From Candidatus Omnitrophota bacterium (lineage in GTDB: Bacteria; Omnitrophota; Omnitrophia; Omnitrophales; Aquincolibacteriaceae), in assembly GCA_903884815.1 (NCBI GenBank), contig CAISGE010000070.1, forward strand, positions 22,080 to 86,079: a stretch of DNA of 64,000 nucleotides, written 5' to 3'. Shown here piece by piece: positions 2,419 to 19,392 of the stretch. The notes beneath the pieces are model-generated. The model saw nothing but the letters and a program-made list of their open reading frames with translations, was not told where the DNA came from and searched no databases. Numbering within the stretch: the first letter of the stretch is position 1; every line of letters starts with the position of its first letter. The translations under genes were made by a program, and so were the position numbers.

Positions 2419-3393
2419 CTATCTCCGGACCTTAAACCCGAAGCGCAGCACGCCCTGCATCGCGCCCCAGCCCCAGGCAAAACAGCGCGCAAATTGCACG
2501 GGAATGCCATACACCGCCGCTGCCGGATCTCGTTTAAAGATAAAACCGAAATTGTTCAAGCAGGAGACAAAAAGAAAGAAAAAGAGCAATGCCGGAATGA
2601 CGCAAAGGCCACGGACAGGCAACAGGAGAAGCGAAAGCGGCAAAAGACCCGAAGCCAGGACCTGATATTTCGCGAGTCCTCCGGTATATACATCGCCGTT
2701 TCTTTTGTCGGGATGATCATTATAAAGTTTGATACGGTCAAATCCACGGCGCGCCTGATTTTTCATGTAAGGCCAGAACGCCTCGGGATGCTCATGCGCG
2801 ACAATCGCCTCCGGCGCGAACAAAATCTTGTAGCGGCGCGAGATCCGGTAGGTCAGATCCCAGTCCTCCCCGCTCGGAGCTTTGTAGGATTCCTCAAAAC
2901 CACCCATTGCCTCGAGGATCTTTTTCCTTATGGCAAGATTGTAGGCCCCGTGCGCGTCCACCACACCCCGGACATTGCGATAACGCCACGCGATCTCATG
3001 TCCTGCGAAACGGGCGAGGACATTTTCTTCGTTGAAGGTCCGGTAAGTCCCAGCGACACCGGCAATGTCATCGGAGGTGAAAGAGATGAGCAATTTCTCA
3101 ATCCAATCCTTATCCGGGACACAATCCCCGTCGGTAAAGATCACGACATCTGCCTGCGCAGCGCGCCAGGCAATATTACGGGAAGCCGCCGGACCTTGAT
3201 TGGTGTTGCGTATGAGACGGATCAGGGGATGCTGCTTCGCGTAGCTTTCGATCACGCCCGCCGTCCCGTCTTTTGAACCGTCATCCACGAACACGATCTC
3301 CTCCGGCATGCGGGACTGGGCCAAGAGGCTCTCGATAAGCCGAGCTATATGCTTTTCTTCGTTGTAAACCGCGGAGACGACCGCAATTCTCAT
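2419..3393 (-). CDS. Family 2 glycosyltransferase (GT-A fold)
   Basis: MRIAVVSAVYNEEKHIARLIESLLAQ...VFVDDGSKDGT...TDGDCVP is the GT2 signature (DXD/DGD). Start chosen at MRIAVV (3393), which forms an ATGA 4-nt overlap with the upstream B12-rSAM stop. There is a C-terminal TM segment. Confidence 0.85.
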   Translation of the reverse strand: MRIAVVSAVYNEEKHIARLIESLLAQSRMPEEIVFVDDGSKDGTAGVIESYAKQHPLIRLIRNTNQGPAASRNIAWRAAQADVVIFTDGDCVPDKDWIEKLLISFTSDDIAGVAGTYRTFNEENVLARFAGHEIAWRYRNVRGVVDAHGAYNLAIRKKILEAMGGFEESYKAPSGEDWDLTYRISRRYKILFAPEAIVAHEHPEAFWPYMKNQARRGFDRIKLYNDHPDKRNGDVYTGGLAKYQVLASGLLPLSLLLLPVRGLCVIPALLFFFLFVSCLNNFGFIFKRDPAAAVYGIPVQFARCFAWGWGAMQGVLRFGFKVRR

Positions 3394-4886
3394 GACGCCT
3401 TTTCCCGTGTGAGTAGTTTTTTGATGAAGAAGCCGAACCCGTAAAGGATCCGGGAACACTCCTGCGGAGAAACCAGGCATTGCCACAGTTTTCGCAGCAT
3501 GAATAACGGGCGCAGGTAGAACTCATGGTAAGCGCGGTCCGTGAACTTCGCGATTGCCTCGCCGGTCAGTTCGCCCCGGTGGACTTGGGAAGCGTAATAG
3601 CCGCTGCCCCGTAGCCACTCGTCATAATTCTCGGAATCCAGCTCTCCACTCGCCTTCGCTTCTTCATAAGCACGCGTCCCGGGATAGACCATGATCGGGA
3701 AAAACTGCGCGGTGTCGAGATTCATACGCTTGGCCATTTCCAGTGTTCCCCGCATCGTCGCGGGCGTTTCATTCGCGCCGCCGAAAAGGAAACAACCATG
3801 GATCATGATCCCGGCCTCGGCGCAGGCCTTCACGAAACGTTCCCGTATTTGGATCGTGGCGCCGCCTTTTTTCATCTCATCCAGGATCGCCTGGTCCGCG
3901 GACTCGAATCCCACGCAGAAAAGCCGGCAACCTGCTTTTTTCATAAGCTTGAGGAGCGCCACATCGTCAAAATCTGCGCGCGCGTTTCCGGACCACGTCA
4001 CCTTGAGGCCACGTCGCAAGATCTCTTCCGAAAGCTGGCGCATGCGGTCCTTATCGACGGTCAGCGTGTCATCTTCGAACATGATCTCTTTATTGTGAGG
4101 CCAGGTCTTTTGGATAAATTCCATCTCATCGACGACGTCCTTCACGGAACGCGGCCGGTAGCGTTGGCCGGTGATCGTCTGGGGGAAGACGCAGAACGTG
4201 CACTGATAAGGGCAACCGCGGCCGCTGACGATCGTCACCTCAGGATGGAGTTGTGCGCCGTAGCTGTAATGCTCGATCTTTAGAAAATCACGATAGATCA
4301 GACTCGCCCAAGGAATCTCATCCAGATTCTCGTGCCAGGGACGGCGTTCGTTGAGAATAAGCTGTTCATCCAAGCGGTAGGCGATCCCCTGAACGCCGGA
4401 AAGCCCCGCGCGACTCTTCCCCTGATCAAAATGCCGAACAACTTCAAGGATTGTAAAATCGTACTCCCCCACCGCTACTATATCCAGCCTCGACGACATC
4501 TTGAGGGTTTCCAGAGGACGTGCGGTGGGATGCGTCCCCACGAGCATCGTCATGGCCCCCGTCTTTTGAGCCAGCCGTTCCATCGCCTGAACATCATGAA
4601 AGACCGAGGCGGTCACGGTGGTGGCCACGATAAGATCCGGTTGGAATTTCTCGACGCGCTCTTCGGTACGCGCGAGATCATAATCTTTCGCCGGGGCGTC
4701 CAGAAAATCGATCGTAAACCCGTGCTTACGGACCAATCCCGCGGCCAGAGAAAGATAGATGGGATAATAAAGGGTCCCGGAGGGCGCCACACCCGGAGAG
4801 CGGCTTTCCCTTGTGAAACGGGAGTGGTAAGGGATATTCAAGAAAAATACTTTCACGCGTTTGTCCTTTCGCGAGACTGATGCCAC
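3390..4886 (-). CDS. B12-binding domain radical SAM protein (class B rSAM; putative methyltransferase or other C-C chemistry)
   Basis: N-terminal Rossmann-like B12-binding region (LIVATTVTAS...MLVGTHPT), then a radical SAM core GRGCPYQCTFC (CxxxCxxC). GTG start at 4886, with an alternative GTG 10 codons in. Confidence 0.85.
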   Translation of the reverse strand: MASVSRKDKRVKVFFLNIPYHSRFTRESRSPGVAPSGTLYYPIYLSLAAGLVRKHGFTIDFLDAPAKDYDLARTEERVEKFQPDLIVATTVTASVFHDVQAMERLAQKTGAMTMLVGTHPTARPLETLKMSSRLDIVAVGEYDFTILEVVRHFDQGKSRAGLSGVQGIAYRLDEQLILNERRPWHENLDEIPWASLIYRDFLKIEHYSYGAQLHPEVTIVSGRGCPYQCTFCVFPQTITGQRYRPRSVKDVVDEMEFIQKTWPHNKEIMFEDDTLTVDKDRMRQLSEEILRRGLKVTWSGNARADFDDVALLKLMKKAGCRLFCVGFESADQAILDEMKKGGATIQIRERFVKACAEAGIMIHGCFLFGGANETPATMRGTLEMAKRMNLDTAQFFPIMVYPGTRAYEEAKASGELDSENYDEWLRGSGYYASQVHRGELTGEAIAKFTDRAYHEFYLRPLFMLRKLWQCLVSPQECSRILYGFGFFIKKLLTREKAS

Positions 4887-4928: not shown

Positions 4929-5567
4929 ATGCTTCCGGAGGATAAAATCCAAAAGATGAATGCCGCCATGATCTTCCAACCTCTCCTTGCGGGTCTCTCG
5001 GTTGGTGCCTTCTGTCTCACTTACTGCTTCCCCTTCATGGGCGCGTTCTTCGGCGCCGAGCCGCGGGGCCTAAAAAAAGACTTCCGTGTGCTTCTGGAAT
5101 TCTTGTTGGGACGCCTTGCCGGCTATCTTTGCTTCGGACTGCTTGTGGGTTATCTTGGAGAAAGATTCGACCCCCGGTGGCTGCGCCTGGCCACCAACAT
5201 TTCATTCGTTGTTTTATCGCTCGCGCTTTTTCTCTACCTCCTCGGCCTGGTCCGTGAAATCCCTCTTTGCAAAACACCGCGCTGGCTTGAGGGCAAACAC
5301 CCGGCGCTTATGGGGTTCCTGATGGGGATCAACCTTTGCCCCCCGTTCCTCCTTTCTATCACCTATGTTTTTTCACGGCAGAGTCCGCTGTACGGGATGC
5401 TGTACTTCGCGATTTTCTTTCTCTCGAGCTCGGTTTATTTCTTGCCGCTCGTGTTCATCGGACTGGCTTCGCAGGCAAAAGCCTTCCGGAGCATGGCCCG
5501 CACAAGCGGCTTTCTCGTCGCCGGGATCTTTTTCATTTACGGGATCTATTCCCTGATACGGAGTTAG
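4929..5567 (+). CDS. Polytopic membrane protein (about 6 TM; TauE/SafE- or DsbD-like transporter fold), function unknown
   Basis: Hydropathy shows six hydrophobic helices. There is a CxxxC pair in TM1 (FCLTYCF). Assignment rests on ORF length and codon usage only. Confidence 0.55.
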   Translation: MLPEDKIQKMNAAMIFQPLLAGLSVGAFCLTYCFPFMGAFFGAEPRGLKKDFRVLLEFLLGRLAGYLCFGLLVGYLGERFDPRWLRLATNISFVVLSLALFLYLLGLVREIPLCKTPRWLEGKHPALMGFLMGINLCPPFLLSITYVFSRQSPLYGMLYFAIFFLSSSVYFLPLVFIGLASQAKAFRSMARTSGFLVAGIFFIYGIYSLIRS

Positions 5568-5577
5568 GAGACCTTTT

Positions 5578-5883
5578 ATGTGGAAATGGTTTGCCTCAGT
5601 CGACCGTCATGCCCGGTGGATCCTCGCCCTGATCATGCTGCTTTTCATTATCACCGGCCTCGGGATCACCAAAGGCCTCATGGACACGCGGTTGGCTAAA
5701 GAGCTGCATGAGAATATCCTACCGATCCCGTTTTATATTCTGATCATCCTGCATATTTTCTACTCCCTGCCATCGCAACTGCTCCGGTGGAGAGTTTTCA
5801 GAAACGAGCGCACCGCGGAGGCCTATTCACTCCTGACGGCGGCGATCCTGCTCGTCCTCTTCTTCTGGCTGCACTTCCGATGA
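5578..5883 (+). CDS. Small 3-TM membrane protein, hypothetical
   Basis: RBS AGGAGA 8 nt upstream of the ATG. It has three hydrophobic helices. Its TGA overlaps ATGA-style with a possible start of the downstream radical SAM gene. Confidence 0.5.
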   Translation: MWKWFASVDRHARWILALIMLLFIITGLGITKGLMDTRLAKELHENILPIPFYILIILHIFYSLPSQLLRWRVFRNERTAEAYSLLTAAILLVLFFWLHFR

Positions 5884-7016
5884 ATTCCGACAACAGGAAT
5901 CCGCAGCCCCTAGCCTTCTTGCTCCTGTTCCTCCTCCTCGGGACATCGGTCTTTTTTATTTATACCCGTGAACGAGCCCTGCAGGCAGAGCGCACCGAAT
6001 CAGCCACCGCCCATGAAGCCCGGTATTATGAGCCGATACCCCACAGCAACATGCTCCAATGCTTTCTTTGCCCGACACGGTGCGTCCTTTCCTCGGGCCA
6101 GTGGGGCGCCTGCAAGGCGAGGAAGAATATCGGCGGGAAGCTTTATTCGATGGTCTACGGCAAGCTTCCGACCGTGCACGTCGACCCTATCGAGAAAAAA
6201 CCACTTTTCCACTTCCTCCCCGGGAGCCTGGCCTTTTCGATCTCCTCGACAGGGTGCAACATGCGCTGCCTTTTTTGCCAAAATGCCGATATTTCACAGT
6301 GTTTTCCGGGCGACATTCCCACGGAGAACTGGACTCCGGTAGAGGTTGTCAATCGGGCCCTCGCCTCCGGAGCGCAATCGATTGCCTTTACCTACAATGA
6401 ACCCGTGATCAACTATGAGTTCATGCTCGAGACCGCGAGGCTCGCAAAAGTCCGAGGACTCCGTACCGTCGTTATTTCAAATGGCTACATCGAGGATAAA
6501 CCGCTGCGGGAACTCTTGCCATACCTCGATGCCTACAAAGTGGATCTCAAGTCGTTCAGCCAGCATTTCTACAGGAAATACACGGGAGGGACTCTGGACG
6601 CCGTCCTAAAGAGCCTCAAGATCATCAAGGAAAGCGGCGTCTGGCTTGAAATCGTCACGCTCCTTGTCCCCGGAGAAAATGACAGCCCGCAAGAGATCCG
6701 CGCCATGGCTCAATGGATCCGTAAGAATCTCGGCGACAGCGTGCCGCTTCACTTCAGCCGGTTCTTCCCGCAGTACAAATTGCAGAACCTGCCGCCCACG
6801 CCGCCGGAGACGATCGTCAGGGCGCGACGGATCGCGATGGAAGAGGGCCTGAAATTCGTTTATACCGGCAACGTCGCTTATCCGGAAGGTGAGGCGACCT
6901 ATTGCCCCGACTCGAAGGAACAAGTGATCGTCCGCCAAGGTTATTTCATCCTCGCCAACCATTTGAAAAACGGAGCCTGCCCCGATGGAGAAAAAATCCC
7001 TGGTATCTGGAAATAG
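5880..7016 (+). CDS. AmmeMemoRadiSam system radical SAM enzyme (AmmeMemoSam_rS; PflA-like activase family)
   Basis: CFLCPTRCVLSSGQWGAC...GCNMRCLFCQN is the N-terminal Cys cluster plus CxxxCxxC core characteristic of this rSAM family. The start is ambiguous. ATG 5880 overlaps the upstream stop (ATGA) and would add an N-terminal hydrophobic segment (LAFLLLFLLLGTSVFFIY). ATG 6051 (MLQCFLCP) gives a canonical cytoplasmic enzyme of about 321 aa. Confidence 0.85.
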   Translation: MNSDNRNPQPLAFLLLFLLLGTSVFFIYTRERALQAERTESATAHEARYYEPIPHSNMLQCFLCPTRCVLSSGQWGACKARKNIGGKLYSMVYGKLPTVHVDPIEKKPLFHFLPGSLAFSISSTGCNMRCLFCQNADISQCFPGDIPTENWTPVEVVNRALASGAQSIAFTYNEPVINYEFMLETARLAKVRGLRTVVISNGYIEDKPLRELLPYLDAYKVDLKSFSQHFYRKYTGGTLDAVLKSLKIIKESGVWLEIVTLLVPGENDSPQEIRAMAQWIRKNLGDSVPLHFSRFFPQYKLQNLPPTPPETIVRARRIAMEEGLKFVYTGNVAYPEGEATYCPDSKEQVIVRQGYFILANHLKNGACPDGEKIPGIWK

Positions 7017-8598
7017 ACCTGAAATCTCAAATCTCAAATTTCAAATAGCGCTTCTGACCGCCATTCTTTCCCTGGCCTTCACACTCCCGTCCCCCGCGGT
7101 GAAAGCGGCGCCGGAGCCGTCCCGCGTCCGCAAGGCCGCCGTGGCCGGAGGCTTTTATCCGGGGACCCCCAAAGAACTCATCGATTTTGTAGACGCCATG
7201 CTCCGCCAGGCGAACCCGCCCAAGATCGAGGGCCCGATCCTCGCGATCATGGTCCCACACGCCGGATATATCTATTCTGGACCTGTCGCCGCTTATGCCT
7301 ACAAAGAACTTGAGGGCCGCGACATCCGCACCGTGATCCTGATCGGCAACAGTCACCGCCATTATTTTGACGGCATCGGGATCGATGCGAAGGGCGCCTT
7401 CGAAACACCGCTGGGTCTCGTCCCTATCGATGAGGCCTTTGCAGAGAAGCTCCTTGCCGCGGATCCCGCCATCGTCGACCGCCCCGATATTCATGAAGGC
7501 GACCATGTCCTGGAGGTGCAACTTCCCTTCCTCCAGCGCGTTCTGAAATATTTCAAGATCGTGCCTATTCTCTTCAGCGGTGATTCACCCGAACTCGCCC
7601 GGAAGCTCGCCGGAGCCCTTGCCCCACTTCTGGATGAAAAAACACTGGTCGTCGCAAGCACCGACATGTCTCATTATCCGCCGTATGCCGAGGCCGGAGC
7701 CGCCGACAAGAAAACGCTCGACGCCATTCTGACCGGAAAAATGGAGAACCTGGATACCGATCTGAAGTCTCTCGAAACTCAACATGTCCCGCAAGCCGAA
7801 ACCTTTCTCTGCAGCCCGAGCGGCGTCCGTGTCGCGATGCTCCTGTCGCAGAACTTGGGGAAACTTCAGCCCGTTCTTTTGAGATACGCCAATTCGGGAG
7901 ATTCCCCAGCCGGCGAGAAGGGCCGCGTGGTCGGGTACGGCGCGATCGCTTTCGTTGCCCAAACCAGTGCGACACCCGCAACGCCCTCGCCCGCCGCCGC
8001 GGAAAAAGATACGCCCCACCCCCAGAAGCCCGAGGAAGGCATCTTGAAGAAATCCGAGCAAGACGAGCTCCTCCGGATTGCACGCTCGACCGTGGAGAGT
8101 CTCATCAAAACCGGGAAAGTACCAGATATCTCTCCCTCTTCCCCGGCCCTTCAACAACCACTCGGAGCCTTCGTCACTCTTAAGGAACGCGGCCAACTTC
8201 GCGGATGCATCGGCCGGTTTGAACCCACAGAACCACTTTACAAGATCGTTCAACAAATGGCGGTCTCCGCGGCGACCGAGGATCCCCGGTTCAGGCCCGT
8301 GAGTCCCGGTGAGCTGGATAAACTCGAATATGAGATCTCCGTCCTGAGCCCTTTGAGAAAGATTCCTGATGCGAACGCGATCGTGCTTGGAAAACACGGC
8401 GTGACGGTCTCAAAAGGATTCCATCACGGTGTATTCCTCCCTCAGGTTGCGACCGAAACGGGATGGAATAAAGAAGAATTCCTCGACGAACTTTGCAGCC
8501 AGAAAGCCGGCCTTCCACGTGATTGCTGGAAGGATCCGGCGGTGGACCTACAGGTTTTTACAGCCGAGGTCTTTACGGAAGAGAAAAAGAAGAACTAA
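6985..8598 (+). CDS. Fused AmmeMemoRadiSam system protein B (Memo/MEMO1 family) and protein A (AMMECR1 domain), with an N-terminal Sec signal peptide or signal anchor
   Basis: Memo motifs AVAGGFYPG and MVPHAGYIYSG...H. After a Pro/Ala-rich linker comes the AMMECR1 motif GAFVTLKERGQLRGCIGRFEP. The N-terminus (IALLTAILSLAFTLPSPAVKA|AP) looks like a signal peptide. The 5' end overlaps the rSAM gene by 32 nt, and there is no alternative in-frame start. Confidence 0.85.
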   Translation: MEKKSLVSGNRPEISNLKFQIALLTAILSLAFTLPSPAVKAAPEPSRVRKAAVAGGFYPGTPKELIDFVDAMLRQANPPKIEGPILAIMVPHAGYIYSGPVAAYAYKELEGRDIRTVILIGNSHRHYFDGIGIDAKGAFETPLGLVPIDEAFAEKLLAADPAIVDRPDIHEGDHVLEVQLPFLQRVLKYFKIVPILFSGDSPELARKLAGALAPLLDEKTLVVASTDMSHYPPYAEAGAADKKTLDAILTGKMENLDTDLKSLETQHVPQAETFLCSPSGVRVAMLLSQNLGKLQPVLLRYANSGDSPAGEKGRVVGYGAIAFVAQTSATPATPSPAAAEKDTPHPQKPEEGILKKSEQDELLRIARSTVESLIKTGKVPDISPSSPALQQPLGAFVTLKERGQLRGCIGRFEPTEPLYKIVQQMAVSAATEDPRFRPVSPGELDKLEYEISVLSPLRKIPDANAIVLGKHGVTVSKGFHHGVFLPQVATETGWNKEEFLDELCSQKAGLPRDCWKDPAVDLQVFTAEVFTEEKKKN

Positions 8599-10809
8599 AA
8601 GCATATTCACGGCCCCCAAAAGTACCAGCGTATTCAAAACGCCCCAGATCGGGATAAGGAAGCCTGCTGTCAGAAGAGCGCCCAATGCCGAGCCCCCAAG
8701 ATCGGCGGCATAAACGCTTCCGAGAAACTTCCCCTGGCCCTTTAACAGATAAAGGCGATTCGCCACCGGAAAGACCATGCCGGCCCAAAATCCCCCAAGA
8801 AGCGCCACGCCTAAAAAGATGAACTGGGACTCCGCGCGGAGGGAGAACAGGCCGGAGAAAATTCCCTCACAAAGCGGTAGCAGCAACAAGAAGAACGCGG
8901 CATTCGCGAGATGAAGCGCCGCCAAAAGCGGCCTTTCGGATATCTTTCCTGACTTCAGAGCAAGCCAAGTCCCGGCACCGAGTCCCGCCATGAATGCCGT
9001 AATGAGCCAAGCGAGACGATAATAGAGATCTCCGAAGGCCGCCTGAAAGAGATAGATCCCCAAGATCTCGGAAGCCATGAGAGAAAAACCAGCCGATCCC
9101 ATGCTCAAGAGGGCAAGCCGCTGTGTCCGTTTTTCAAAACCTTTTGCCCAAGAACCAAAGAACAAGATCACGAGGAGAAACAGACCCAGGATAGCGGAGA
9201 ATGGAACCCCGCCCAAAACAGAGAATCCCCCGGAAACATGGGGATCAAATTGGCTGAGCCACCTGAGGAAGGCGAAATAACAAACCCTCGGCCGCAAGTC
9301 CGTATTCGTGATCTTCACCGCTGCGTTCCTAAAAACCGCAGCAACCCGCGCCACCCGGTCATTCTCCAACCGGTAACGGATAAAGTCCGCCGTCACGAAA
9401 TCCGTCCGAACTTTTCTCTCTAAAAGTCGCCCGGCCATGACCTTCGCGTCCCATGCAAGCGAGGCATTCGCCGAAGCGATAAAAAAAAGCGTATCCTCGG
9501 GAAGGATGCGGACGAAGGGAAAGACCTGCCGGAGCGTCGCGTCAACCGAGGCACCGAACCGCGCGAGAACCGGCGTCGTAAAATCTGCCGCGAAGGTAAT
9601 GTGAGTCGCAAAAATACCGTCCGGCGCAAGATGCGAACGCACCAGGCGGAAGAACCGTTCCGTGTAATTGCGGTTCACGAGAACAGAAACGGGATCCGGA
9701 AAATTCGAAATGATAACATCGAAAATTCCGCCTTCCGTCCTGAGAAAATCGAGAGGGTCCCGGCTACGGAACTTCACCCGGGGATCGATCAGAGCCTTCT
9801 TAGGCCCCTCAGAAAGGAAGCCGGCGGCGATCTTCGCAATTGCCGGATCAAGCTCAACGGAAACAACCTCCGCGGGCGCGTGCTTCAAGATCTCCTCAAG
9901 CGGTCCGTTAAAACCCGTTCCAAGTATCAGTATCCTGCGGGGAGAGGAATGCGCGAGCATCGGGAAATGCACCAGATATTCACTCGCGAGATCCGCCTGA
10001 TCCGCCCCCAAAAGCAGTCCGTTTTGATAGAAGTCGTGCTGACGCCCCAGGCGTGTGACGGACACATTCCCATGGATGGTGTTCCGGGTTACCAGAAGTT
10101 TTTCATTCGGAAACCGGAACTGGGATGTTTTCTGCTGAATGGCCGAGCTGCCCACCACAAGCCCTATAAGAAAAATAAGCCCTAAAAGGGCCATCGCTAG
10201 CTGATGGGATCTTTTCTCTCCCGCGAGATTGAGGATGAGGGACGCGGCAGTGAAATTCAAAATGGCCAGGATTGCCGCAACACGGAACTCGTTGGCGAAA
10301 ACTAGAAAAAAACTGAAAGCAATACCTCCCGTGACGAACCCCAGGCATTCCCAAAGGTAGGCCCCGCCAACCATTTGAGCCGCATCACCCCTCGAGTCTC
10401 CCGACGCCCGCACTCGGGCCGCAGCTGTAAATTGAATTCCCATCACCCCGCAAAGGGGTACAAGCACCGCGAAAGAATAAATGAGCGACGGAGAAAGTGC
10501 GGGAATGGAGCCGGGCGGTGTGGCAAGTATCATCTTGCCGGAACGAACTAGGAAGATCGCGAGCGGGAAAAGGAGGGCGGACAGGCCATGGCAGAGTCCG
10601 AGAAGTCGGGAGAGGCTCCGTACCTCCGCAGTCGCCCTTGATCCCAACGCGCTCCCGACAGCCGTACCGATGAGCCAGCAAAAGAGTATCCACCCAATGA
10701 AAAACTCGTTGCCGTAGAAACTCATCGCCAGTTCTCGGGTCACCACAACCTGAGAAACGAGGGAAGAGAATCCGAGGACCGTAAAAGAAAAAATGAGGAT
10801 CTTTTTCAT
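8548..10809 (-). CDS. Fused polytopic membrane (MFS-like) domain and spermidine synthase-like (PABS-fold aminopropyltransferase/methyltransferase) protein
   Basis: N-terminal half has at least 8 TM segments. The middle has ILILGTGFNGPLEEILKHAPAEVVSVELDP, a spermidine-synthase-type Rossmann motif. The C-terminal block has additional TM segments. Its 3' end overlaps the convergent Memo-AMMECR1 gene by 51 nt. Confidence 0.8.
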   Translation of the reverse strand: MKKILIFSFTVLGFSSLVSQVVVTRELAMSFYGNEFFIGWILFCWLIGTAVGSALGSRATAEVRSLSRLLGLCHGLSALLFPLAIFLVRSGKMILATPPGSIPALSPSLIYSFAVLVPLCGVMGIQFTAAARVRASGDSRGDAAQMVGGAYLWECLGFVTGGIAFSFFLVFANEFRVAAILAILNFTAASLILNLAGEKRSHQLAMALLGLIFLIGLVVGSSAIQQKTSQFRFPNEKLLVTRNTIHGNVSVTRLGRQHDFYQNGLLLGADQADLASEYLVHFPMLAHSSPRRILILGTGFNGPLEEILKHAPAEVVSVELDPAIAKIAAGFLSEGPKKALIDPRVKFRSRDPLDFLRTEGGIFDVIISNFPDPVSVLVNRNYTERFFRLVRSHLAPDGIFATHITFAADFTTPVLARFGASVDATLRQVFPFVRILPEDTLFFIASANASLAWDAKVMAGRLLERKVRTDFVTADFIRYRLENDRVARVAAVFRNAAVKITNTDLRPRVCYFAFLRWLSQFDPHVSGGFSVLGGVPFSAILGLFLLVILFFGSWAKGFEKRTQRLALLSMGSAGFSLMASEILGIYLFQAAFGDLYYRLAWLITAFMAGLGAGTWLALKSGKISERPLLAALHLANAAFFLLLLPLCEGIFSGLFSLRAESQFIFLGVALLGGFWAGMVFPVANRLYLLKGQGKFLGSVYAADLGGSALGALLTAGFLIPIWGVLNTLVLLGAVNMLLVLLFLFRKDLGCKNL

Positions 10810-10876: not shown

Positions 10877-11764
10877 TCAGGAGGCTTTCCCTGAAATAAT
10901 ATGGACATCGCTTTGCGGGTAGGGCATGGTGAGTTTTGCCGCAATGAGCGCCTTATGGATCGCAAGATTGATCGCGCAGAGACTCTGGAAATATTTCGTC
11001 GACGGGATCCAGTAGCGGCAGCCGATATCGATCGAGGAGTCCCCAAATTCCTGGAGGCCGACTTGTGGTTTTGGCGTTTGCGCCACATCCTTAAAACTGT
11101 TGATCGTCTTTTCGATCACCTGGATCGCCTTCTCAGGATCATCCGAATAGCTGATCCCCACCATATTCTCCACGATCTTGTACTTGAAGGAATTGTGAAT
11201 GATCTCGCCCACTATATGCTTGTTGGGAATGGTGATCTTAACCCCATCTTCATCCGTCAGGATTGTGGAGGATAACGTGACCTCCTTGACGATCCCGGTC
11301 TGTCCCTGAACCTGGATGTTATCTCCCACGACGAACGGACGGCCCAAAATGATCGAGATACCGGCGCCGTAATTCGAAAGAGGTCCTTGAAGAGCCATGC
11401 TAACCCCGAATGCCCCGGCACCGATCATGGCGATAAAGGGTGTGATCGTGATGCCGAATTTCCCGAGAGCGATGAGGATCGCAAATCCCAGGATCATGAT
11501 CTTTACACAAGATGCAATAAACTTGGCGAGGGTAATATCCACTTTCTTCGCATTGCAAAGCTTTAGAATGACCCTCAAGGCCCAATTCGCGATAAAGTTC
11601 CCGATAATAAGGACAAGAATGGCGCCAATCACTTGAAAACTGTAATTGGTAAGGAACTCCACTGCCGTTTTGATGAACTGTTGCACCGTGCTCATCTCTT
11701 TTTCCATAAATTTCCCCTCTAGAACTTTATGTGCCGTTGTTTGAAGCGCGGAAGATACAGCCAT
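10877..11764 (-). CDS. Mechanosensitive ion channel, MscS family
   Basis: Three TM segments followed by the MscS beta-domain signature (FVVGDNIQVQGQTGIVKEVTLSSTILTDEDGVKITIPN). A strong RBS AAGGAGGT lies 7 nt upstream of the ATG at 11764. Confidence 0.85.
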   Translation of the reverse strand: MAVSSALQTTAHKVLEGKFMEKEMSTVQQFIKTAVEFLTNYSFQVIGAILVLIIGNFIANWALRVILKLCNAKKVDITLAKFIASCVKIMILGFAILIALGKFGITITPFIAMIGAGAFGVSMALQGPLSNYGAGISIILGRPFVVGDNIQVQGQTGIVKEVTLSSTILTDEDGVKITIPNKHIVGEIIHNSFKYKIVENMVGISYSDDPEKAIQVIEKTINSFKDVAQTPKPQVGLQEFGDSSIDIGCRYWIPSTKYFQSLCAINLAIHKALIAAKLTMPYPQSDVHIISGKAS

Positions 11765-11825
11765 GTCATACCTCCTTCATTTTATCACTATTTTGTGAGG
11801 GAAAGAAGCTTCCCAGCGGCGATCT

Positions 11826-13016
11826 TCAGGCTTTCGCTTGAAGAGGTAGTGTAAAAATAAACTTCGATCCTTTACCGAGTTCCGACTCAATCCATATCTT
11901 GCCGCCGTGAAGGTCCACAATATCCTTGGCAATGGAAAGGCCAAGGCCCGTTCCTTCCGCTTTCTCCGTCAGAATGCGCTCGAACTTGTCGAAAAGCTTG
12001 CGCTGATTCTCCGGGCTAATTCCCCCTCCGGTATCCTCCACTTCCACGCGGGCCTCCCCTTCCACTGCAAGAAGCCGCAACACAACCTTACGGCCCTCGG
12101 GCGTGTATTTCAAGGCATTGCTCGTCAGATTCACCACCACCTGGGTCAAACGGTCTTCATCGGCAAGCACTGTCACCGGTTCGGCTGGGATCTCAAGACC
12201 AAACTGGATATTCTTTTTTACCGCCTCCTCCACAAAAGATTCGCGCGTGCCTTTCAGGACGCTCCCGAGATCCACCGTTCCGAGCTCGAGCTTCATTTTC
12301 CCGGCCGCGATCTTGGAAACATCCAGAATATCCTTGATCAAGCGTAGGAGGCGTTTGATGGTTCGAAGCATGATCTCGATCGTCTCCGTTTGCTTCGTCG
12401 TCACGGGCCCGTAAAAACCATCCTGCAGGTTGTCAGCAAACCCTTTCATGATCGCAAGCGGTGATTTGAGTTCGTGGGACACATTGGCCACGAAAGCATC
12501 TTTCTTCTCATCCAGTTCTTTCAGGCGCGTCACATCGAGATAAAGCTGGCGGTCCAAAAGCTGGGACAGTGCAAGAACGATCTCGGTCTCGCTCATAGCT
12601 TTCGGCGCATTGACCGCGGGAGCACTTTCGCGAGCCGGCGTTTTCTTAAGATACATCTCCACCGCAGAGATCAGCGCGGCGCCTTCATCCTTGCCGTAGA
12701 AACCATCCGCACCGGTCTGAAAGCTCCATTTCTGGGGATCCTGGACCACGCCTACGGCATCGCGGGCCGTCATCATAACGATTGGAATGTCCTTCGTGGC
12801 AGGATGATCTTTGAGGAGTCGGCAGACTTGATAACCGTTGATCTTGGGCATATGAACATCGAGAAGGATGAGGTCGGGAATGCGGGAAAATACGGTATTG
12901 ATCGCTTCGATCCCATCCACGGCGGTCAAAACCTCATAACCGCCGTCCTCAAGCTGCACTTTGTACATCTCTCGCACAAGAGAACTATCATCCACCACGA
13001 GAATAATTTTTTTCAC
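11826..13016 (-). CDS. Hybrid sensor histidine kinase with an N-terminal receiver domain (REC-HisKA-HATPase_c)
   Basis: REC: [18 protein letters not shown]...[13 protein letters not shown]. HisKA H-box: [15 protein letters not shown]. HATPase: G-boxes ([19 protein letters not shown]). Confidence 0.85.
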
Positions 13017-13035
13017 AGAGTCCCCCTCGGGTATC

Positions 13036-14040
13036 TCAGCGTACGGACCGGTTTATTTCATCCGCCATAGAATCAAGAGACAGCACGCAGGCGATCGCGC
13101 CTTGATCCACCGCCACTTTATTCATCCCGTAGATCGCGGAGGTCTTCTCATCCTGCGCGATCGTGTGGCCCCCCGCCGCTCGAATAGCTGCAATCCCCTC
13201 CACACCGTCCCGTCCCATACCGGTCATGATCACACCCACCGCCCTGTCCTTATAAATCTCTGCCGCTGAGAGCATCATCACGTCGATCGAGGGAACATGA
13301 AGCATTTTCCGGGACCCATCTTCCTTAAGAACGATCTTCTCTTCCTCATTGACGGTCATATGAACCCCATCCGGCGCAAAATAAACGGTTCCGCTTTTAA
13401 GTGGATCGCCCGCTTTAGCTACCCGGAGACTGAGCGCCGAGGTTAAACTCAACCACTCCACAAGCCCTTGAATGAACCCTGTGGAAATATGCTGGACAAT
13501 AAGAACGCATGCCGGAAGATCGGCGGGCAGTTTTGCGAGAAGGGCTTGCAGCGCCTGAGGCCCCCCTGTTGATACACCCAGGGCCACCACCCGCGTGGCA
13601 GCTTCTCTGTTCGTGACAAGCCTCTTCACTACCGGGCGGATATGCATCCTCCGGAGAGCTTTCACCCGGGAAGCGATCTTCACCTTCAACAGTACTTCCC
13701 CCTTGATCTCATCGAGGTCCCCGGTACTTGCCACAAAATCCATGGCTCCAAAGCTAAGCGCCTTGACGATGATCGGAACTTCCCGGCTGCTGACGATCAC
13801 GATCGGAGTCGGGCACTCTTCCATGATCAGCTCCGTCGCTTCCAATCCTCCCATCACCGGCATGGTTATATCCATGGTGACCACGTCCGGCCTCAAGGCT
13901 AACGTCTTTTCATAGCCTTCTTTCCCGTTGCGGGCCTCGCCAATCACTTCGATCTCAGGGTCCGCACTCAAAATGGTATTCAGCGCCTGGCGCACCAGCG
14001 TCGAATCATCAACAATCAAAACACGGATATTTTTCGGCAT
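13036..14040 (-). CDS. cheB: Chemotaxis response regulator protein-glutamate methylesterase CheB
   Basis: REC domain ([14 protein letters not shown]...[11 protein letters not shown]) plus the CheB methylesterase catalytic domain ([31 protein letters not shown]). Start set at MPKNIRV with RBS AAGGGAA. Confidence 0.9.
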
Positions 14041-14101
14041 AATTCCCTTTATGTTGAAATTCAAAACGCATGCATTGAACTTTTATCTCTAACGCTGCGT
14101 T

Positions 14102-16255
14102 CTACCCCAGCAACCGCTCCATGGTCTCGAGAAGACCTTCGGAGGTGAAATCGCTTTTGAGAAGGTACGCGTTAGCGCCCGCCTCCATTCCCTTGCGTTT
14201 ATCTTCATCGCTTTCGCGGGTGGTCACGATAATGATCGGGACCTCTTTGTAATTCTTTTCCCGGCGCAAGCGCGTCACAAGTTCGAATCCATCCATCCGG
14301 GGCATCAAAACATCCGAGATGACGAGATCGAATTTTTCCTGCGCTGCCTTTTCAAGCGCCTCCTTGCCGTCCCGGGCGATCACCACCGCATAACCCACGG
14401 ATTCGAGAATATTCTTCTCCAGCATGGCGGTAGTCAGTGTGTCCTCAGCGAGCAGAATAGTTTTCTTCTTTTTTCCCGGAGCGGCTTTGGGCTTTGCGGT
14501 CGTCTGGCGAACCACGCCTCCTTCGGCCGAATGGATGATCGAAGGAATATCCAGGATCATAACGACCTTCCCACTCCCCAGGATCGTCGCACCCGCGATG
14601 TGCTTCACGTGCTTCAAAGGGTCGCCCATGCTCTTGGAGATGATCTCCTGACGCCCCATCAGCTCATCCACCAGGATCCCGATCCTTTTTTCGACCGACT
14701 GAACGATCAGTACCGGAAAGAATTTCTTCTCCAAGATCCCTTTCGCGGGAAGCCCAAAGACATCATGCAATTTGACGACCGGCAGGATATGCCCCCGCAC
14801 CGTGATCACATCCTTGGTCTCCACGGTCTTGAGATCCGCGAGATTGATCCGCACCGTTTCGATCACAGAGTCGACCGGGATTGCAAAGATATCACTGCCC
14901 GCCACCACCAGGAGACTTTCGGTGATCGCAAGCGTGAGCGGCAACCGTATGATAAAACTGGTTCCTCGAGCAGGATCGGAAGAAACCTCCACCATGCCCT
15001 TCAACTTGATCACAGTGTCGCGCACCACATCGAGCCCCACCCCGCGCCCGGAAATGTCGGAAACTTCTTCGCGCGTACTGAACCCTGGAGTGAAAAGCAG
15101 CTGAAAGATCTGTTCATCCACCATCGAGGAAATATGTTCCTGGGACACAAGATCCCTGGCCACAGCGATCTCCCGGACCTTGGCAACATCGATACCGCAT
15201 CCGTCATCGGTCACCGAAATGACCACCTGTGAACCTTCTTGGGTTGCCGAAAGCTTGATCCTGCCCGAGGCAGGCTTATTCTGCCTTTTTCTTTCTTCCG
15301 GAGATTCGATCCCGTGGTCCACGGAGTTCCTTAAAAGATGCATCAGGGGCACCTTCATTTCATCCAGGATCGCCTTATCAAGCTGGGTATCCTGACCTTC
15401 GATCACCAGATCAACCTGCTTTCTTTTTTGCTGCGCGAGATCTCTCATCGCCCTGGGAAAGGAGTTGAAAAGATAAGCGACCGGAAGCATGCGGACTTTC
15501 ATCATTTCATCCTGCATGTTCTCCGTCAGAAGATCGATGCGCTCCGTAACCGAGGTCAGATCCTTCATCACGCCACTGAAAACAGCGTAAGCCTCTCCTT
15601 GCGCCTCCGCTTTCACCAGAAGTTCCTTCGAAAGCTCTTCAAGGCGGATCTTGGAGATAAGCAGCTCGCCCGAAAGATTGATCAAACGATTAAGCTTCGC
15701 TATATCCACCCGGACGCTGTCCTCAACAGGTGCCGCAGGAGCAGAAGGAGCCTCGATGGTTTCGGCTTCAGAGATGCCTGAAGCCGGTTCCGGCTTAACC
15801 GAAGGCTCCGTAGCATCAGGAGCCGGGGCCACCGGAGACCGAGGGAGTTCCCCTTCAAATTTTCCGGAAAAAACCTTCTCTGCTAAGGCGCACAAATCCT
15901 CTGTAAGGTCACGGTTGATCCCGCTATCGTTCCAGGTCACTTTGTCTTGAAGCAGCGGCTCGACCACATCGAGACACTTGAATAACATTTCAAAGCAGGT
16001 TTTACTGAGAGAAAGTTCACCGTTTAGGGCCCGCTGGAGACCATCCTCCATTTTGTGAGTGATGTCGGCGATGCGCTTGTAGCCCATCATGGTGGCACCG
16101 CCCTTAATGCTATGGGCCTCGCGCATCATGGAATTCAAAAGTTCACGGTCCGAAGGGGATTTTTCGAGCTTCAACAGCCCCAGGCTGAGGGCCTGGACAC
16201 GTTCTCGTGTCTCGGTCTTGAACTGATCGATGAATTTCGATTTATCAAACGCCAT
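14102..16255 (-). CDS. cheA: Chemotaxis histidine kinase CheA fused to a C-terminal CheY-like receiver (CheA-CheY)
   Basis: Hpt domain with the phospho-His (REAHSIKGGATMMG), dimerisation domain, HATPase (HLLRNSVDHGIE...DDGCGID...GRGVGLDVV) and a CheW-like domain. The C-terminal REC is KTILLAEDTLTTAML...ISDVLMPRMDGFEL...KSDF. Confidence 0.9.
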   Translation of the reverse strand: MAFDKSKFIDQFKTETRERVQALSLGLLKLEKSPSDRELLNSMMREAHSIKGGATMMGYKRIADITHKMEDGLQRALNGELSLSKTCFEMLFKCLDVVEPLLQDKVTWNDSGINRDLTEDLCALAEKVFSGKFEGELPRSPVAPAPDATEPSVKPEPASGISEAETIEAPSAPAAPVEDSVRVDIAKLNRLINLSGELLISKIRLEELSKELLVKAEAQGEAYAVFSGVMKDLTSVTERIDLLTENMQDEMMKVRMLPVAYLFNSFPRAMRDLAQQKRKQVDLVIEGQDTQLDKAILDEMKVPLMHLLRNSVDHGIESPEERKRQNKPASGRIKLSATQEGSQVVISVTDDGCGIDVAKVREIAVARDLVSQEHISSMVDEQIFQLLFTPGFSTREEVSDISGRGVGLDVVRDTVIKLKGMVEVSSDPARGTSFIIRLPLTLAITESLLVVAGSDIFAIPVDSVIETVRINLADLKTVETKDVITVRGHILPVVKLHDVFGLPAKGILEKKFFPVLIVQSVEKRIGILVDELMGRQEIISKSMGDPLKHVKHIAGATILGSGKVVMILDIPSIIHSAEGGVVRQTTAKPKAAPGKKKKTILLAEDTLTTAMLEKNILESVGYAVVIARDGKEALEKAAQEKFDLVISDVLMPRMDGFELVTRLRREKNYKEVPIIIVTTRESDEDKRKGMEAGANAYLLKSDFTSEGLLETMERLLG

Positions 16256-16288
16256 CCGTAGGCCCCAAGATCAAAGCTTAGCTTAATT

Positions 16289-17806: not shown

Positions 17807-17827
17807 TTTGTTCCCGGATCTTTTCAG

Positions 17828-19369: not shown

Positions 19370-19392
19370 GATGTCTCTCCTTGTTGTCCGGA

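Follow-up and report, generated by a model that had tools for sequence, protein, structure and literature searches.

Predicted export signals and membrane partners of an AmmeMemoRadiSam operon in Candidatus Omnitrophota

The AmmeMemoRadiSam system combines AMMECR1 (protein A), Memo (protein B), and a radical SAM enzyme encoded by adjacent genes, and its function is itself unknown; AMMECR1 was still termed functionally uncharacterized in texts of 2019 and 2026. The human homologs, MEMO1 and AMMECR1, are separate cytosolic proteins without a radical SAM partner, whereas the locus described here encodes both domains in one fused, putatively exported protein that has such a partner. The same three families are recognized over curated cut-offs, with adjacent genes, as in the canonical system. 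The differences are that A and B form a single polypeptide, a common sub-type, that the fusion bears a predicted export signal and the radical SAM enzyme a predicted membrane helix, and that a DsbD_2-family protein, a miniprotein with three transmembrane helices (3-TM), and a SpeE-like protein are conserved alongside. No description of an envelope-facing AmmeMemoRadiSam variant was found in the searchable literature.

Further points of comparison exist for the radical SAM enzyme. Its closest solved structure is PflA (E = 4.7e-13), and the glycyl-radical activases are its nearest characterized families. It differs from these by an extra N-terminal CxxCxxxC and a membrane helix (or Tat or Sec signal, among its orthologs), by scores far under the family cut-offs (69.9 vs 231.75), and by the lack of a glycyl-radical enzyme partner. 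AtsB and the other anaerobic sulfatase-maturing enzymes (anSMEs) also pair a radical SAM enzyme functionally with a protein that reaches the periplasm, but they are cytoplasmic SPASM-domain proteins, whereas many of the orthologs considered here have export signals of their own, and nothing indicates that the fusion serves as a substrate. Finally, in Rieske-type Tat Fe-S proteins an N-terminal helix that is not cleaved holds a cofactor-loaded domain outside the membrane, which provides a precedent for such a topology. Radical SAM orthologs likewise carry Tat motifs, but the enzyme studied here has neither a twin arginine (RR) nor KR and is not matched by the TIGR01409 Tat model; in most members of its clade, KK precedes the helix.

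Operon layout and protein families

The window is a stretch of 64,000 nucleotides from a Candidatus Omnitrophota bacterium. Its positions 4929-8598 hold, on the plus strand, four tightly coupled genes, encoding in order the DsbD_2-family six-TM protein, the 101-aa 3-TM miniprotein, the radical SAM enzyme, and the Memo-AMMECR1 fusion; all ORFs of the preliminary description were confirmed at the coordinates given there. The operon is translationally coupled. A 10-nt gap separates the first two genes, with AGGAG 8 nt ahead of the miniprotein start, the miniprotein stop and the radical SAM start share an ATGA overlap, and the first 32 nt of the fusion gene overlap the radical SAM 3' end in a different frame, with GGAG 9 nt 5' of ATG 6985. 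The system extends past 8598 to one convergent partner, the SpeE-like gene on the minus strand (8548-10809), whose 3' end runs 51 nt into the fusion gene.

The preliminary description had inferred, without database searches, that all three AmmeMemoRadiSam components were present, and the HMM searches bear this out far over the cut-offs. TIGR04337 matches the radical SAM ORF with 356.6 bits (cut-off 220), in agreement with PF04055, and the fusion is matched by TIGR04336 at residues 49-323 (247.7 bits, cut-off 26) and by TIGR04335 at residues 361-530 (188.3 bits, cut-off 99), in agreement with PF01875 and PF01871. The three signature proteins are present and intact, including the Memo metal ligands, the AMMECR1 LRGCIG motif, and both radical SAM cysteine motifs.

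The fusion (6985-8598, 537 aa) begins with a putative export signal (residues 1-41, 6985-7107), assigned from the sequence, the AF2 model, and the homologs, followed by the Memo domain (7129-7953), a Pro/Ala/Thr-rich linker (7954-8064), and the AMMECR1 domain (8065-8574). The AF2 model shows a detached N-terminal helix (17-31) and then a disordered stretch, two confident domains (pLDDT about 90 or higher for Memo), and a disordered, Pro/Ala-rich segment at residues 328-350 of the linker (pLDDT below 50), which is variable in length and sequence in alignment A1. The Memo domain is homologous to human MEMO1 (3bcz, E = 4e-14) over an alignment spanning PHAGY, SH, and DxxH, and it keeps the His/His/Asp/His/Cys metal-ligand positions as H92, H124, D227, H230, and C276, with invariant columns taken from alignment A1. 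The AMMECR1 domain is homologous to archaeal PH0010 (1vaj, E = 1.3e-35), its other PDB relatives being MM0484 and ST0229, and its LRGCIG motif, with C408, is invariant in A1. The order of domains and the Pro/Ala linker are thus as proposed previously, but, contrary to what had been thought, the fusion as such is not unusual: at least 598 GTDB species have it, and JGI already labels it 'protein B/protein A'. The outstanding feature is the export signals.

Translation of the radical SAM ORF could begin at either GTG 5787 or ATG 5880. The form on record (P0121, 378 aa, 100% identical) starts at the ATGA-coupled 5880, giving a gene at 5880-7016 whose product includes a hydrophobic helix at about residues 10-28 (5907-5963), an auxiliary CxxCxxxC at residues 61-68 (6060-6083), and the CxxxCxxC motif at residues 126-133 (6255-6278).

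The six-TM CxxxC protein noticed earlier is real and matches PF13386, DsbD_2 (65.8 bits), an assignment that depends on this single Pfam model. Its start is more likely ATG 4956 (203 aa, 4956-5567) than the previously used ATG 4929 (212 aa, the longest ORF), since the 203-aa form is on record (P0241) and homologs align from there. In alignments A3 and A4, C20, C24, and P26 of the first helix (CxxxCxP) and C128-P129-P130 in the fourth helix region are invariant (203-aa numbering). Six helices and an invariant Cys followed by Pro in the first and fourth helix regions are shared with the CcdA/DsbD carriers (the clan of PF02683 and PF13386), but the first helix has a CxxxC pair instead of a single Cys. 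Although the AF2 model is all-helical (pLDDT 75.5), no significant PDB match was found by fold or sequence, including to solved CcdA or DsbD, and Foldseek did not return a CcdA-like match. In NCBI and JGI records, these proteins go under the name 'sulfite exporter TauE/SafE'.

The miniprotein (5578-5883) belongs to no family in the Pfam or NCBIfam libraries, and its own family is small, with only 80 cluster representatives in 1.84 billion proteins. Two histidines on one helix, H44 (78/79 homologs) and H59 (77/78), are near invariant, and their spacing of about 15 residues matches that of di-heme membrane cytochromes b. Moreover, a C-terminal Cyt-b5 domain (PF00173) was matched in all nine longer homologs tested, eight of them over the gathering score.

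The convergent gene encodes a 753-aa 'fused MFS/spermidine synthase'-like polytopic membrane protein, in which a spermidine-synthase-like Rossmann domain of about 300 residues separates two transmembrane helix bundles. It matches NF037959 (54.9 bits, cut-off 40) and PF01564 and has the architecture of membrane-bound aminopropyltransferases (NF037959, PRK03612), with which it shares the ribose-binding Glu (VE[LI][DN]P). In contrast to these enzymes, it scores under the equivalog cut-offs (165 vs 472), its canonical acidic catalytic residues are not conserved, namely the [DE] position of GGG[DE]G and the leading Asp of DxxDP, and it has an extra C-terminal helix bundle and a genomic tie to exported AmmeMemoRadiSam loci. 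Judged from the K+R bias of the loops, the soluble domain faces away from the cytoplasm in 19-22 of 28 homologs.

N-terminal signals and conserved neighbors

Localization was assigned for all proteins from hydropathy, charge, and motif heuristics together with comparative evidence, and whether the fusion signal is cleaved or serves as an anchor was judged on these grounds only. In the predicted Sec-type signal of the fusion, a basic n-region is followed by the hydrophobic core IALLTAILSLAFTL and then by PSPAVKA↓AP, where V occupies position -3 and A position -1. Of 120 close homologs, at least 108 retain such a hydrophobic segment, and 24 of these have a lipobox (PROSITE PS51257 pattern); among more distant relatives, lipoprotein lipoboxes or N-terminal anchors take its place. 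Such replacements make sense only for exported proteins, which supports export of the fusion. The radical SAM enzyme is likewise predicted to have a conserved N-terminal transmembrane helix, retained in 119 of 120 homologs, whose starts thus lie ahead of the hydrophobic region and not beyond it. Both N-terminal features had been read from the single sequence in the preliminary description, and the homologs uphold them.

We surveyed 79 GTDB loci encoding a B-A fusion. In 63 the fusion is of the exported type and in 16 it lacks a signal, so the exported type is the majority form among the surveyed fusions and not a one-off. At exported-type loci, the radical SAM N-terminus is a Tat signal, a Sec-like signal or anchor, or nothing. 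Tat-type N-termini (SRRxFL-type) occur at 24 loci from other phyla, three of them over the cut-off of TIGR01409 and five more under it, and the orthologs in other phyla remain TIGR04337 proteins (349-379 bits). Sec-like signals or anchors occur at nine loci, and the enzymes of L010, L015, and L027 show canonical cleavable signals (LVA↓D, VSA↓D, and VFA↓L, respectively).

The co-directional membrane proteins pointed out previously are syntenic in Omnitrophota, Verrucomicrobiota, and Planctomycetes-like MAGs. Across phyla the arrangement DsbD_2/(miniprotein)/radical SAM/B-A/convergent SpeE-like reappears, the same cassette being found in a Verrucomicrobiota MAG (L002), L083, and L087. DsbD_2 adjoins the radical SAM and B-A genes in L001-L005, L010, L015, L027, L083, and L087. 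The miniprotein, likewise real, has the identical position in L002, L005, and L087 and is absent from some otherwise identical cassettes (L003, L004, and L083). DsbD_2 is present in 8/9 loci with a non-Tat hydrophobic radical SAM N-terminus compared to 0/24 Tat-type loci (Fisher p = 6e-7), and the SpeE-like gene neighbors 33/63 exported-type B-A loci compared to 0/16 of the cytoplasmic type (p = 9e-5); these statistics ignore phylogeny and were not corrected for it. In de novo clustering, the SpeE-like gene was the only widely recurrent neighbor besides B-A and radical SAM.

Possible location of the radical SAM chemistry

This layout, conserved across many phyla, suggests that radical SAM chemistry takes place at the cell membrane or outside it. 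We consider it probable, although by no means certain, that the operon and its convergent partner encode an envelope-located, envelope-facing AmmeMemoRadiSam variant with its own transmembrane redox supply. The steps of such a mechanism are inferred and become less certain from the fusion to the radical SAM enzyme, the carriers, the SpeE-like protein, and the substrate. Sec would move the fusion out, and it would act, as a soluble or an N-terminally tethered protein, in the periplasm or on the outside of the cytoplasmic membrane. The radical SAM enzyme would sit at that membrane too, and its catalytic domain would most likely also face outward, on an uncleaved signal anchor, because orthologs in other phyla have Tat or cleavable Sec-type signals. 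Exported enzymes would be cut off from cytoplasmic reductants, and the operon would therefore bring its own transmembrane carriers: the DsbD_2 protein as a cysteine-based carrier, either a CcdA-like thiol/disulfide relay or possibly a metal carrier, and the miniprotein as a second one. The SpeE-like protein may bind a SAM-type nucleoside and supply or present a cofactor or substrate at the membrane. The substrate might be a membrane-bound or envelope molecule of undetermined chemical identity, from which the radical SAM enzyme would abstract hydrogen before the metal-dependent Memo and the Cys-containing AMMECR1 domains finish the reaction. Against this explanation, we know of no mechanism by which a Sec-exported protein could be loaded with an Fe-S cluster or by which SAM and a low-potential reductant could be made available outside the cytoplasm, and b-type hemes and thiol relays probably lack the reducing power that a radical SAM cluster requires.

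It is also conceivable, although we are inclined to doubt it, that the radical SAM domain stays in the cytoplasm, where an N-out helix would tether it to the inner side of the membrane, and only the fusion is exported. Fe-S assembly, SAM, and flavodoxin or ferredoxin would then be at hand in the cytoplasm, and an intermediate that is flipped or embedded in the membrane would join both sides. The DsbD_2 protein and the miniprotein would serve the fusion, keeping Cys276 and Cys408 or its metal reduced, and not the radical SAM enzyme. To our knowledge, all characterized radical SAM enzymes are cytoplasmic, which counts for this arrangement, and a literature search found nothing to the contrary. 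The absence of a Tat motif from the enzyme also speaks for it, and K+R residues alone are more abundant after the helix than before it (3 vs 1 in the window, means of 2.79 vs 2.14), which favors a cytoplasmic catalytic domain. At six loci (L014, L042, L060, L063, L065, and L080), the radical SAM enzyme beside an exported fusion has no N-terminal signal, indicating that the two need not occupy one compartment and that separation by the membrane is tolerated. At L085, again in support, an exported thioredoxin-fold protein with WCGWC adjoins a lipoprotein-type fusion; a thioredoxin-like partner is not consistently near DsbD_2 loci. Nevertheless, the Tat and cleavable Sec-type signals of orthologs are hard to explain in this way, and the KK before the helix, together with an N flank of more positive net charge than the C flank in 104/120 homologs, disfavors translocation of the N-tail. 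Moreover, DsbD_2 follows the type of radical SAM N-terminus and does not simply track the exported fusion, which is present in all those loci. Since helix direction rests on heuristics and comparative evidence, the side of the membrane faced by the radical SAM domain is unresolved.

Either topology is compatible with a further hypothesis, which we regard as unlikely, that the PflA-like radical SAM enzyme modifies the fusion before or after its export and that the mature fusion is the working envelope enzyme. The anSMEs, which modify periplasm-bound sulfatases, are a precedent, the closest families and solved structure are protein-activating enzymes (PflA, YjjW, NrdG), and all three kinds of radical SAM N-terminus beside an exported fusion can be accommodated. 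The invariant RVVGYGA at the end of the Memo domain (alignment A1) even resembles the glycyl-radical fingerprint RVxGY, but VVGY forms a core β-strand in the AF2 model (E316-325, pLDDT about 90) and no exposed loop. A glycyl-radical-enzyme fold is absent, the low activase-family scores given above also argue against this hypothesis, and the SpeE-like partner is left without a role. Alternatively, starts chosen too far upstream could make ordinary cytoplasmic AmmeMemoRadiSam components look exported, as the two candidate starts of the radical SAM ORF and the position of the fusion start inside the preceding gene might suggest. We judge this very improbable: there is no ATG between 6985 and the Memo domain, and the sole GTG, 7099, lacks a ribosome-binding site. 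For each of the two proteins, over 100 homologs preserve the hydrophobic segment at the level of protein sequence, and distant relatives carry lipoboxes or Tat motifs in its place. Genuine cytoplasmic fusions, the 16 without a signal, look different and begin only 0-25 residues ahead of the Memo domain.

Operon structure and family assignment

Four consecutive forward-strand ORFs lie within positions 4929-8598 of the window, and these genes are tightly coupled. Called as the longest form, as were all ORFs here, the first (4929-5567) encodes the 6-TM DsbD_2 protein with 212 residues; starting from the internal ATG at 4956, it has the 203 residues of the form on record, to which the homologues align. 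It is followed by the gene of a 101-aa miniprotein (5578-5883), with AGGAG 8 nt before it, whose stop codon overlaps, in an ATGA, with the radical SAM start at 5880, inside an ORF spanning 5787-7016. The gene for the Memo (protein B)-AMMECR1 (protein A) fusion (6985-8598, 537 aa), with GGAG 9 nt upstream of its ATG at 6985, overlaps the radical SAM gene by 32 nt. On the opposite strand, the gene of a 753-aa polytopic protein (SpeE-like protein, 8548-10809) converges on the fusion gene with an overlap of 51 nt. A tail-to-tail overlap of these two genes, of about 45-51 nt (8548-8598 in the window), is kept in several Omnitrophota loci (also L001, L004, L005, and L083, where L numbers denote the loci compared).

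All three AmmeMemoRadiSam components recognized in the preliminary description were confirmed by the curated models it had named, each above its cut-off, and Pfam agrees. Protein A matches TIGR04335 at 188.3 bits (cut-off 99; fusion residues 361-530) and PF01871 at 194.7 bits, protein B matches TIGR04336 at 247.7 bits (cut-off 26; residues 49-323) and PF01875 at 181.7 bits, and the radical SAM enzyme matches TIGR04337 at 356.6 bits (cut-off 220). The Memo domain aligns to human MEMO1 with the His/His/Asp/His positions retained and Cys276 invariant across homologues, and the AMMECR1 domain, which matches PH0010, retains LRGCIG. The radical SAM enzyme, whose nearest solved structure is PflA, contains CNMRCLFC (CxxxCxxC) at residues 126-133 and an auxiliary CFLCPTRC (CxxCxxxC) at residues 61-68. 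The AF2 model of the fusion (pLDDT 83.9) comprises an isolated N-terminal helix (17-31) and two confident globular domains, with a disordered linker (328-350). The components are encoded together in the window, and the radical SAM gene likewise adjoins the B-A gene in about 45 of the surveyed loci. By every defining feature tested, the window system is a member of AmmeMemoRadiSam.

The fusion of B and A had been considered unusual, but all 120 best homologues are B-A fusions, named 'protein B/protein A' by JGI. A scan of one genome per GTDB species retrieved at least 598 relatives in many phyla, including Omnitrophota, Planctomycetes, Bacteroidales (with Prevotella), Acidobacteriota, Latescibacterota, Zixibacteria, Anaerolineae, and Syntrophales. 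The best-matching named homologues come from Candidatus Omnitrophota MAGs.

Some irregularities were observed in the reading frames. An A6 run (6991-6996), a potential slippage site, is located exactly where the radical SAM and fusion frames overlap. A 900-aa radical SAM-B-A triple fusion (P0049, in L083) was rejected as evidence on topology: at its junction (L083:7080-7110) the run has A5 where the window has A6, with no other difference, and this missing A, which merges the two genes into a single ORF, is a probable assembly or sequencing error. The radical SAM gene of two Omnitrophota MAGs is interrupted at one and the same place (L006:6450-6760 and L022:6590-6880): an upstream ORF in another frame ends in '...PKEAKYY(K/R)V..E*' and the main ORF restarts just before 'CLLCP'. 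In L022, the upstream ORF also encodes an N-terminal transmembrane helix. A genuine split gene, recoding, and an assembly error made twice are all possible. Beyond the SpeE-like gene, the reverse strand (10877-20025) carries an MscS-type channel gene and a chemotaxis-like cluster (histidine kinase/response regulator, CheB, CheA, and two MCPs), assigned by Pfam through L001, a locus identical to the window; these genes show no apparent connection with the system.

N-terminal sequences of the fusion and of the radical SAM enzyme

A Sec signal peptide had been proposed for the fusion. By inspection, as SignalP was not run, the N-terminus contains the three Sec regions, i.e. basic residues (K3, K4, R11, and K18), a hydrophobic stretch (IALLTAILSLAFTL), and then VKA|A, and a hydrophobic segment precedes the Memo domain in at least 108 of 120 homologues. 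A type I signal calls for a basic n-region, 10-15 hydrophobic residues, and small residues at -3 and -1, and these observations are consistent with such a putative signal, whether cleaved or kept as an anchor. In the nearest relatives, a conserved LLSLAFTF is followed by LPGEKKE; since no AxA site is present, these N-termini may be uncleaved anchors. Further homologues have a longer N-terminal helix, and 24 of the 120, more distant relatives such as P0075, P0079, and P0082, contain the PROSITE PS51257 lipobox, with endings such as ...LLLASC and ...LMISCGSS. Lipoboxes are meaningful only on translocated proteins. The fusion in the window does not itself meet the PS51257 pattern for a lipoprotein signal, its N-terminus being devoid of Cys.

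Among the 79 loci of the GTDB scan whose fusion was typed, 63 encode an exported-type fusion, with a hydrophobic or lipobox N-terminus, and the other 16 (cytoplasmic-type) start 0-25 non-hydrophobic residues before the Memo domain, which makes them two clearly different classes. Hydrophobic segments were assigned with a 12-residue Kyte-Doolittle window of at least 1.9 and motif rules; these thresholds are arbitrary, and no dedicated signal or topology predictor was used. For the predicted export of the fusion, this comparative evidence is stronger than the N-terminal features of the window protein alone.

The start at 5880, suggested because it adds an N-terminal hydrophobic helix to the radical SAM enzyme, proved to be that of the 378-aa form on record, and a hydrophobic core of about 20 residues, usually with KK before and RRE after it, is kept in 119 of 120 homologues. 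Judging from these sequences, we conclude that the predicted helix is a real, conserved membrane anchor. The window enzyme does not qualify for a Tat signal, which calls for the twin-arginine motif S/T-R-R-x-F-L-K before a moderately hydrophobic region: its N-terminus (MNSDNRNPQPLAF...) lacks RR and has no TIGR01409 match. Three other N-terminal states were found in a wider survey of the TIGR04337 family, in which all ten tested proteins scored 349-379 bits. Tat-type signals occur in 24 loci, e.g. MISRREFLATTARSASTAAGAALFPASALA, SSRRDFLESAAKLGAALGAAALA, and NNRRDFIKKGMIGVGG, with KRxFLK in some Bacteroidales. This count rests on a motif rule; TIGR01409 is a short model, and of the N-termini tested only three exceed its cut-off (L046, 18.5 bits; L018, 20.2 bits; L069, 21.0 bits), five more being below it. 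Cleavable Sec-type signals are present in three loci (L015, VSA|D; L010, LVA|D; L027, VFA|L), and in about six loci, from Prevotella and some other Bacteroidales, the enzyme has no extension and an in-frame stop lies just upstream. The signal-less enzyme of Prevotella is paired with a lipoprotein fusion, and carriers of the Tat type include Prolixibacteraceae and Bacteroidales.

Ten of the Tat-signal TIGR04337 enzymes, from Acidobacteriota, Latescibacterota, Syntrophales, and Ignavibacteria-like MAGs, also contain an insertion with an invariant CxxCH between the 'ARYW' and CxxCxxxC motifs, in the N-terminal 100 residues or so of the radical SAM ORFs (L035, L038, L040, L045, L046, L048, L049, L069, L071, and L073). 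CxxCH is the haem-c attachment motif, and it is odd on a Tat substrate, given that haem is normally attached covalently after Sec export.

Membrane proteins encoded with the system

The two co-directional membrane proteins of the preliminary description are indeed part of the cassette, whose full order recurs in L002, from a Verrucomicrobiota MAG. The 6-TM protein is assigned to PF13386 (DsbD_2; 65.8 bits, cut-off 24.9), with invariant C20, C24, and C128, each with prolines nearby, and invariant CxxxCxP and CPP motifs. This subfamily is small, with 209 matches at E <= 1e-5, and at least 40 of the 120 listed matches apparently come from the same source as a listed B-A or radical SAM homologue, according to indirect record matching. 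Of the nine loci in which the radical SAM N-terminus is hydrophobic but not of the Tat type, eight contain DsbD_2, compared to none of the 24 Tat-type loci (p = 6e-7); DsbD_2 is also found in L083 and L087. Neither this test nor the one for the SpeE-like gene takes shared ancestry into account. A profile search of the PDB gave no sequence match to DsbD_2, and Foldseek found no match to its AF2 model at E < 0.3; a CcdA-like mechanism is thus only inferred from the Pfam assignment and the Cys pattern. In L087:4313-8619 (MAG GCA_015233495.1), DsbD_2, the miniprotein, the radical SAM enzyme, and a convergent SpeE-like gene occur with no Memo-AMMECR1 gene within the 10-kb locus; the accessory module can thus accompany the radical SAM enzyme without the fusion.

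In L085, the gene directly upstream of a lipoprotein-type fusion (L085:5486-5944) encodes a thioredoxin-fold protein of 152 residues, which has a WCGWC active site and a hydrophobic N-terminus; no radical SAM gene is adjacent. A complete thiol relay through such a neighbour was considered and set aside, since thioredoxin-fold genes are found near the fusion in only a handful of the surveyed loci.

The miniprotein has 3 TM segments and no family in the libraries searched, and its own family amounts to only 80 cluster representatives among 1.84 billion proteins. Some cassettes that are identical in other respects (L003, L004, and L083) lack it. H44 and H59, about 15 residues apart in the second helix, are nearly invariant. 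Membrane di-haem cytochromes b are recognized by a transmembrane helix with two His at a spacing of about 13-15 residues. Roughly one third of the homologues have at least 200 residues, and a cytochrome b5 domain is matched at the C-terminus of all nine of those tested, in eight cases with a score that exceeds the Pfam gathering threshold. The miniprotein is a putative minimal di-haem cytochrome b, if dimeric, with both haem binding and dimerization being inferred only.

De novo clustering of all neighbouring ORFs revealed no widely conserved partner beyond one, a polytopic family of 700-850 residues with a spermidine-synthase-like domain, to which the SpeE-like protein belongs. Its gene adjoins 33 of the 63 exported-type fusions and none of the 16 cytoplasmic-type ones (Fisher p = 9e-5, without phylogenetic correction). 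The protein meets NF037959 ('fused MFS/spermidine synthase', 54.9, cut-off 40) but not the SpeE equivalogs TIGR00417 (76, cut-off 249.55) and PRK03612 (165, cut-off 472). The ribose-binding Glu is retained. Neither the acidic residue of GGG[DE]G nor the first Asp of DxxDP is preserved: the window protein reads GTGFNG and SNFPDP, and these positions vary across 28 orthologues. The SpeE-like protein is probably not a canonical aminopropyltransferase, as far as its motifs can tell. By a crude count of K+R in the loops, its soluble domain would lie on the non-cytoplasmic side in 19-22 of the 28 orthologues.

Proposed mechanism and alternatives

The analysis establishes a complete system, conserved targeting sequences on its components, and conserved membrane partners; compared to the described AmmeMemoRadiSam system, the variant in the window is envelope-targeted and has three extra membrane partners. 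The overall interpretation given in the preliminary description is supported. The fusion itself is ordinary, and the interesting parts are the localization, the partner set, and the Tat/Sec/DsbD_2 pattern. From there on, we infer that the fusion would act outside the cytoplasmic membrane and that the radical SAM enzyme would be held at the same membrane, probably facing the same side. DsbD_2, as a thiol relay or a metal carrier, and the miniprotein may carry reducing power across the membrane, a role that depends on the inferred DsbD_2 mechanism and haem binding. This would answer the objection, raised in the preliminary description, that radical SAM enzymes need cytoplasmic reducing equivalents. 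DsbD_2 is found only with radical SAM enzymes of the non-Tat type, which is consistent with its being needed where export does not deliver the enzyme already folded and loaded. Delivery or retention at the membrane of a SAM-type ligand, or of the substrate, would best be assigned to the SpeE-like protein.

The main alternative is that only the fusion is exported and the radical SAM domain stays in the cytoplasm. To our knowledge, all characterized radical SAM enzymes are cytoplasmic and require Fe-S assembly, SAM, and low-potential electrons, and all of these needs favour a cytoplasmic domain, as do the signal-less enzymes of the Prevotella-type loci. The charges around the helix are ambiguous: K+R counts, slightly higher after the helix, suggest that the domain is inside, whereas the net charge, more positive on the N-terminal flank in 104 of 120 homologues, suggests N-in with the domain outside, and given this conflict the positive-inside analysis was not used to decide. 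The side of the catalytic domain remains unsettled, but the Tat-type and Sec-type signals predicted on orthologues tip the balance towards the outside.

Either topology would also accommodate a protein-maturase model on the pattern of sulfatase maturation, but support for it is weak. In the segment VVGYGAI (7927-7947; fusion residues 315-321), V315, V316, G317, and Y318 are invariant in 14 diverse fusions. Read from the Arg before it (RVVGYGA), the segment is similar to RVxGY, the glycyl-radical fingerprint, and the radical SAM partner resembles PflA. Against this model, the AF2 model places the RVVGY motif in a buried beta-strand, which weakens the case for a glycyl-radical site. The enzyme also fails the PflA-family activase models TIGR02493 and TIGR02494 (69.9 bits, cut-off 231.75, and 53.7 bits, cut-off 174.35, respectively), and no glycyl-radical-enzyme fold is present in the operon.

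An outward-facing system is our favoured, though unsettled, reading. In its full form, the whole AmmeMemoRadiSam pathway would operate on the periplasmic face of the membrane in many phyla, with the radical SAM enzyme arriving there by folded Tat export or by a Sec-type insertion (Omnitrophota, Verrucomicrobiota, and Planctomycetes), the latter relying on dedicated membrane proteins: Cys-based DsbD_2 as a carrier, a di-haem cytochrome b of minimal size, and an MFS-SpeE-like protein for transport of a SAM-type cofactor through the membrane. Taken as a whole, this proposal is tentative, and we consider it somewhat more doubtful than probable.

Conservation of MEMO1 and AMMECR1 extends from archaea to humans, where both have links to disease, and AMMECR1 is still called uncharacterized in the literature searched. 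We know of no biochemical function for the ancestral three-protein system. In the searchable literature, 'AmmeMemoRadiSam' appears in gene lists only, and no functional study of the system was found. One paper mentions 'Memo-Ammecr1 systems', citing Burroughs et al. 2019, J Biol Chem 294:10211. The literature searched, which did not cover Burroughs et al. 2019, contained nothing relevant on exported, Tat-dependent, or periplasmic radical SAM enzymes. If confirmed, the orthologues with textbook Tat or Sec signals would provide the first demonstrated case of radical SAM enzymes acting outside the cytoplasm, and the route by which SAM, clusters, and electrons get to them would then need explaining.

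The consistent predicted export or anchoring of the components narrows the substrate search to the membrane and envelope, and the recruited, presumably SAM-binding polytopic protein and putative transmembrane electron carriers narrow it likewise, providing concrete, testable partners. Memo has reportedly been linked to the modification of nucleotide bases and aliphatic isoprenoids. The most economical guess for the substrate is a membrane-bound lipid/isoprenoid or an envelope component. Divergent from the operon, the reverse strand encodes a B12-binding radical SAM protein (3390-4886), most similar to the hopanoid-associated HpnJ (331.7 bits, below the cut-off of 577.6), and a family-2 glycosyltransferase (2419-3486). 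Homologues of both genes are also found near the cassette in L003 and L004, a neighbourhood that hints at lipid or envelope modification.
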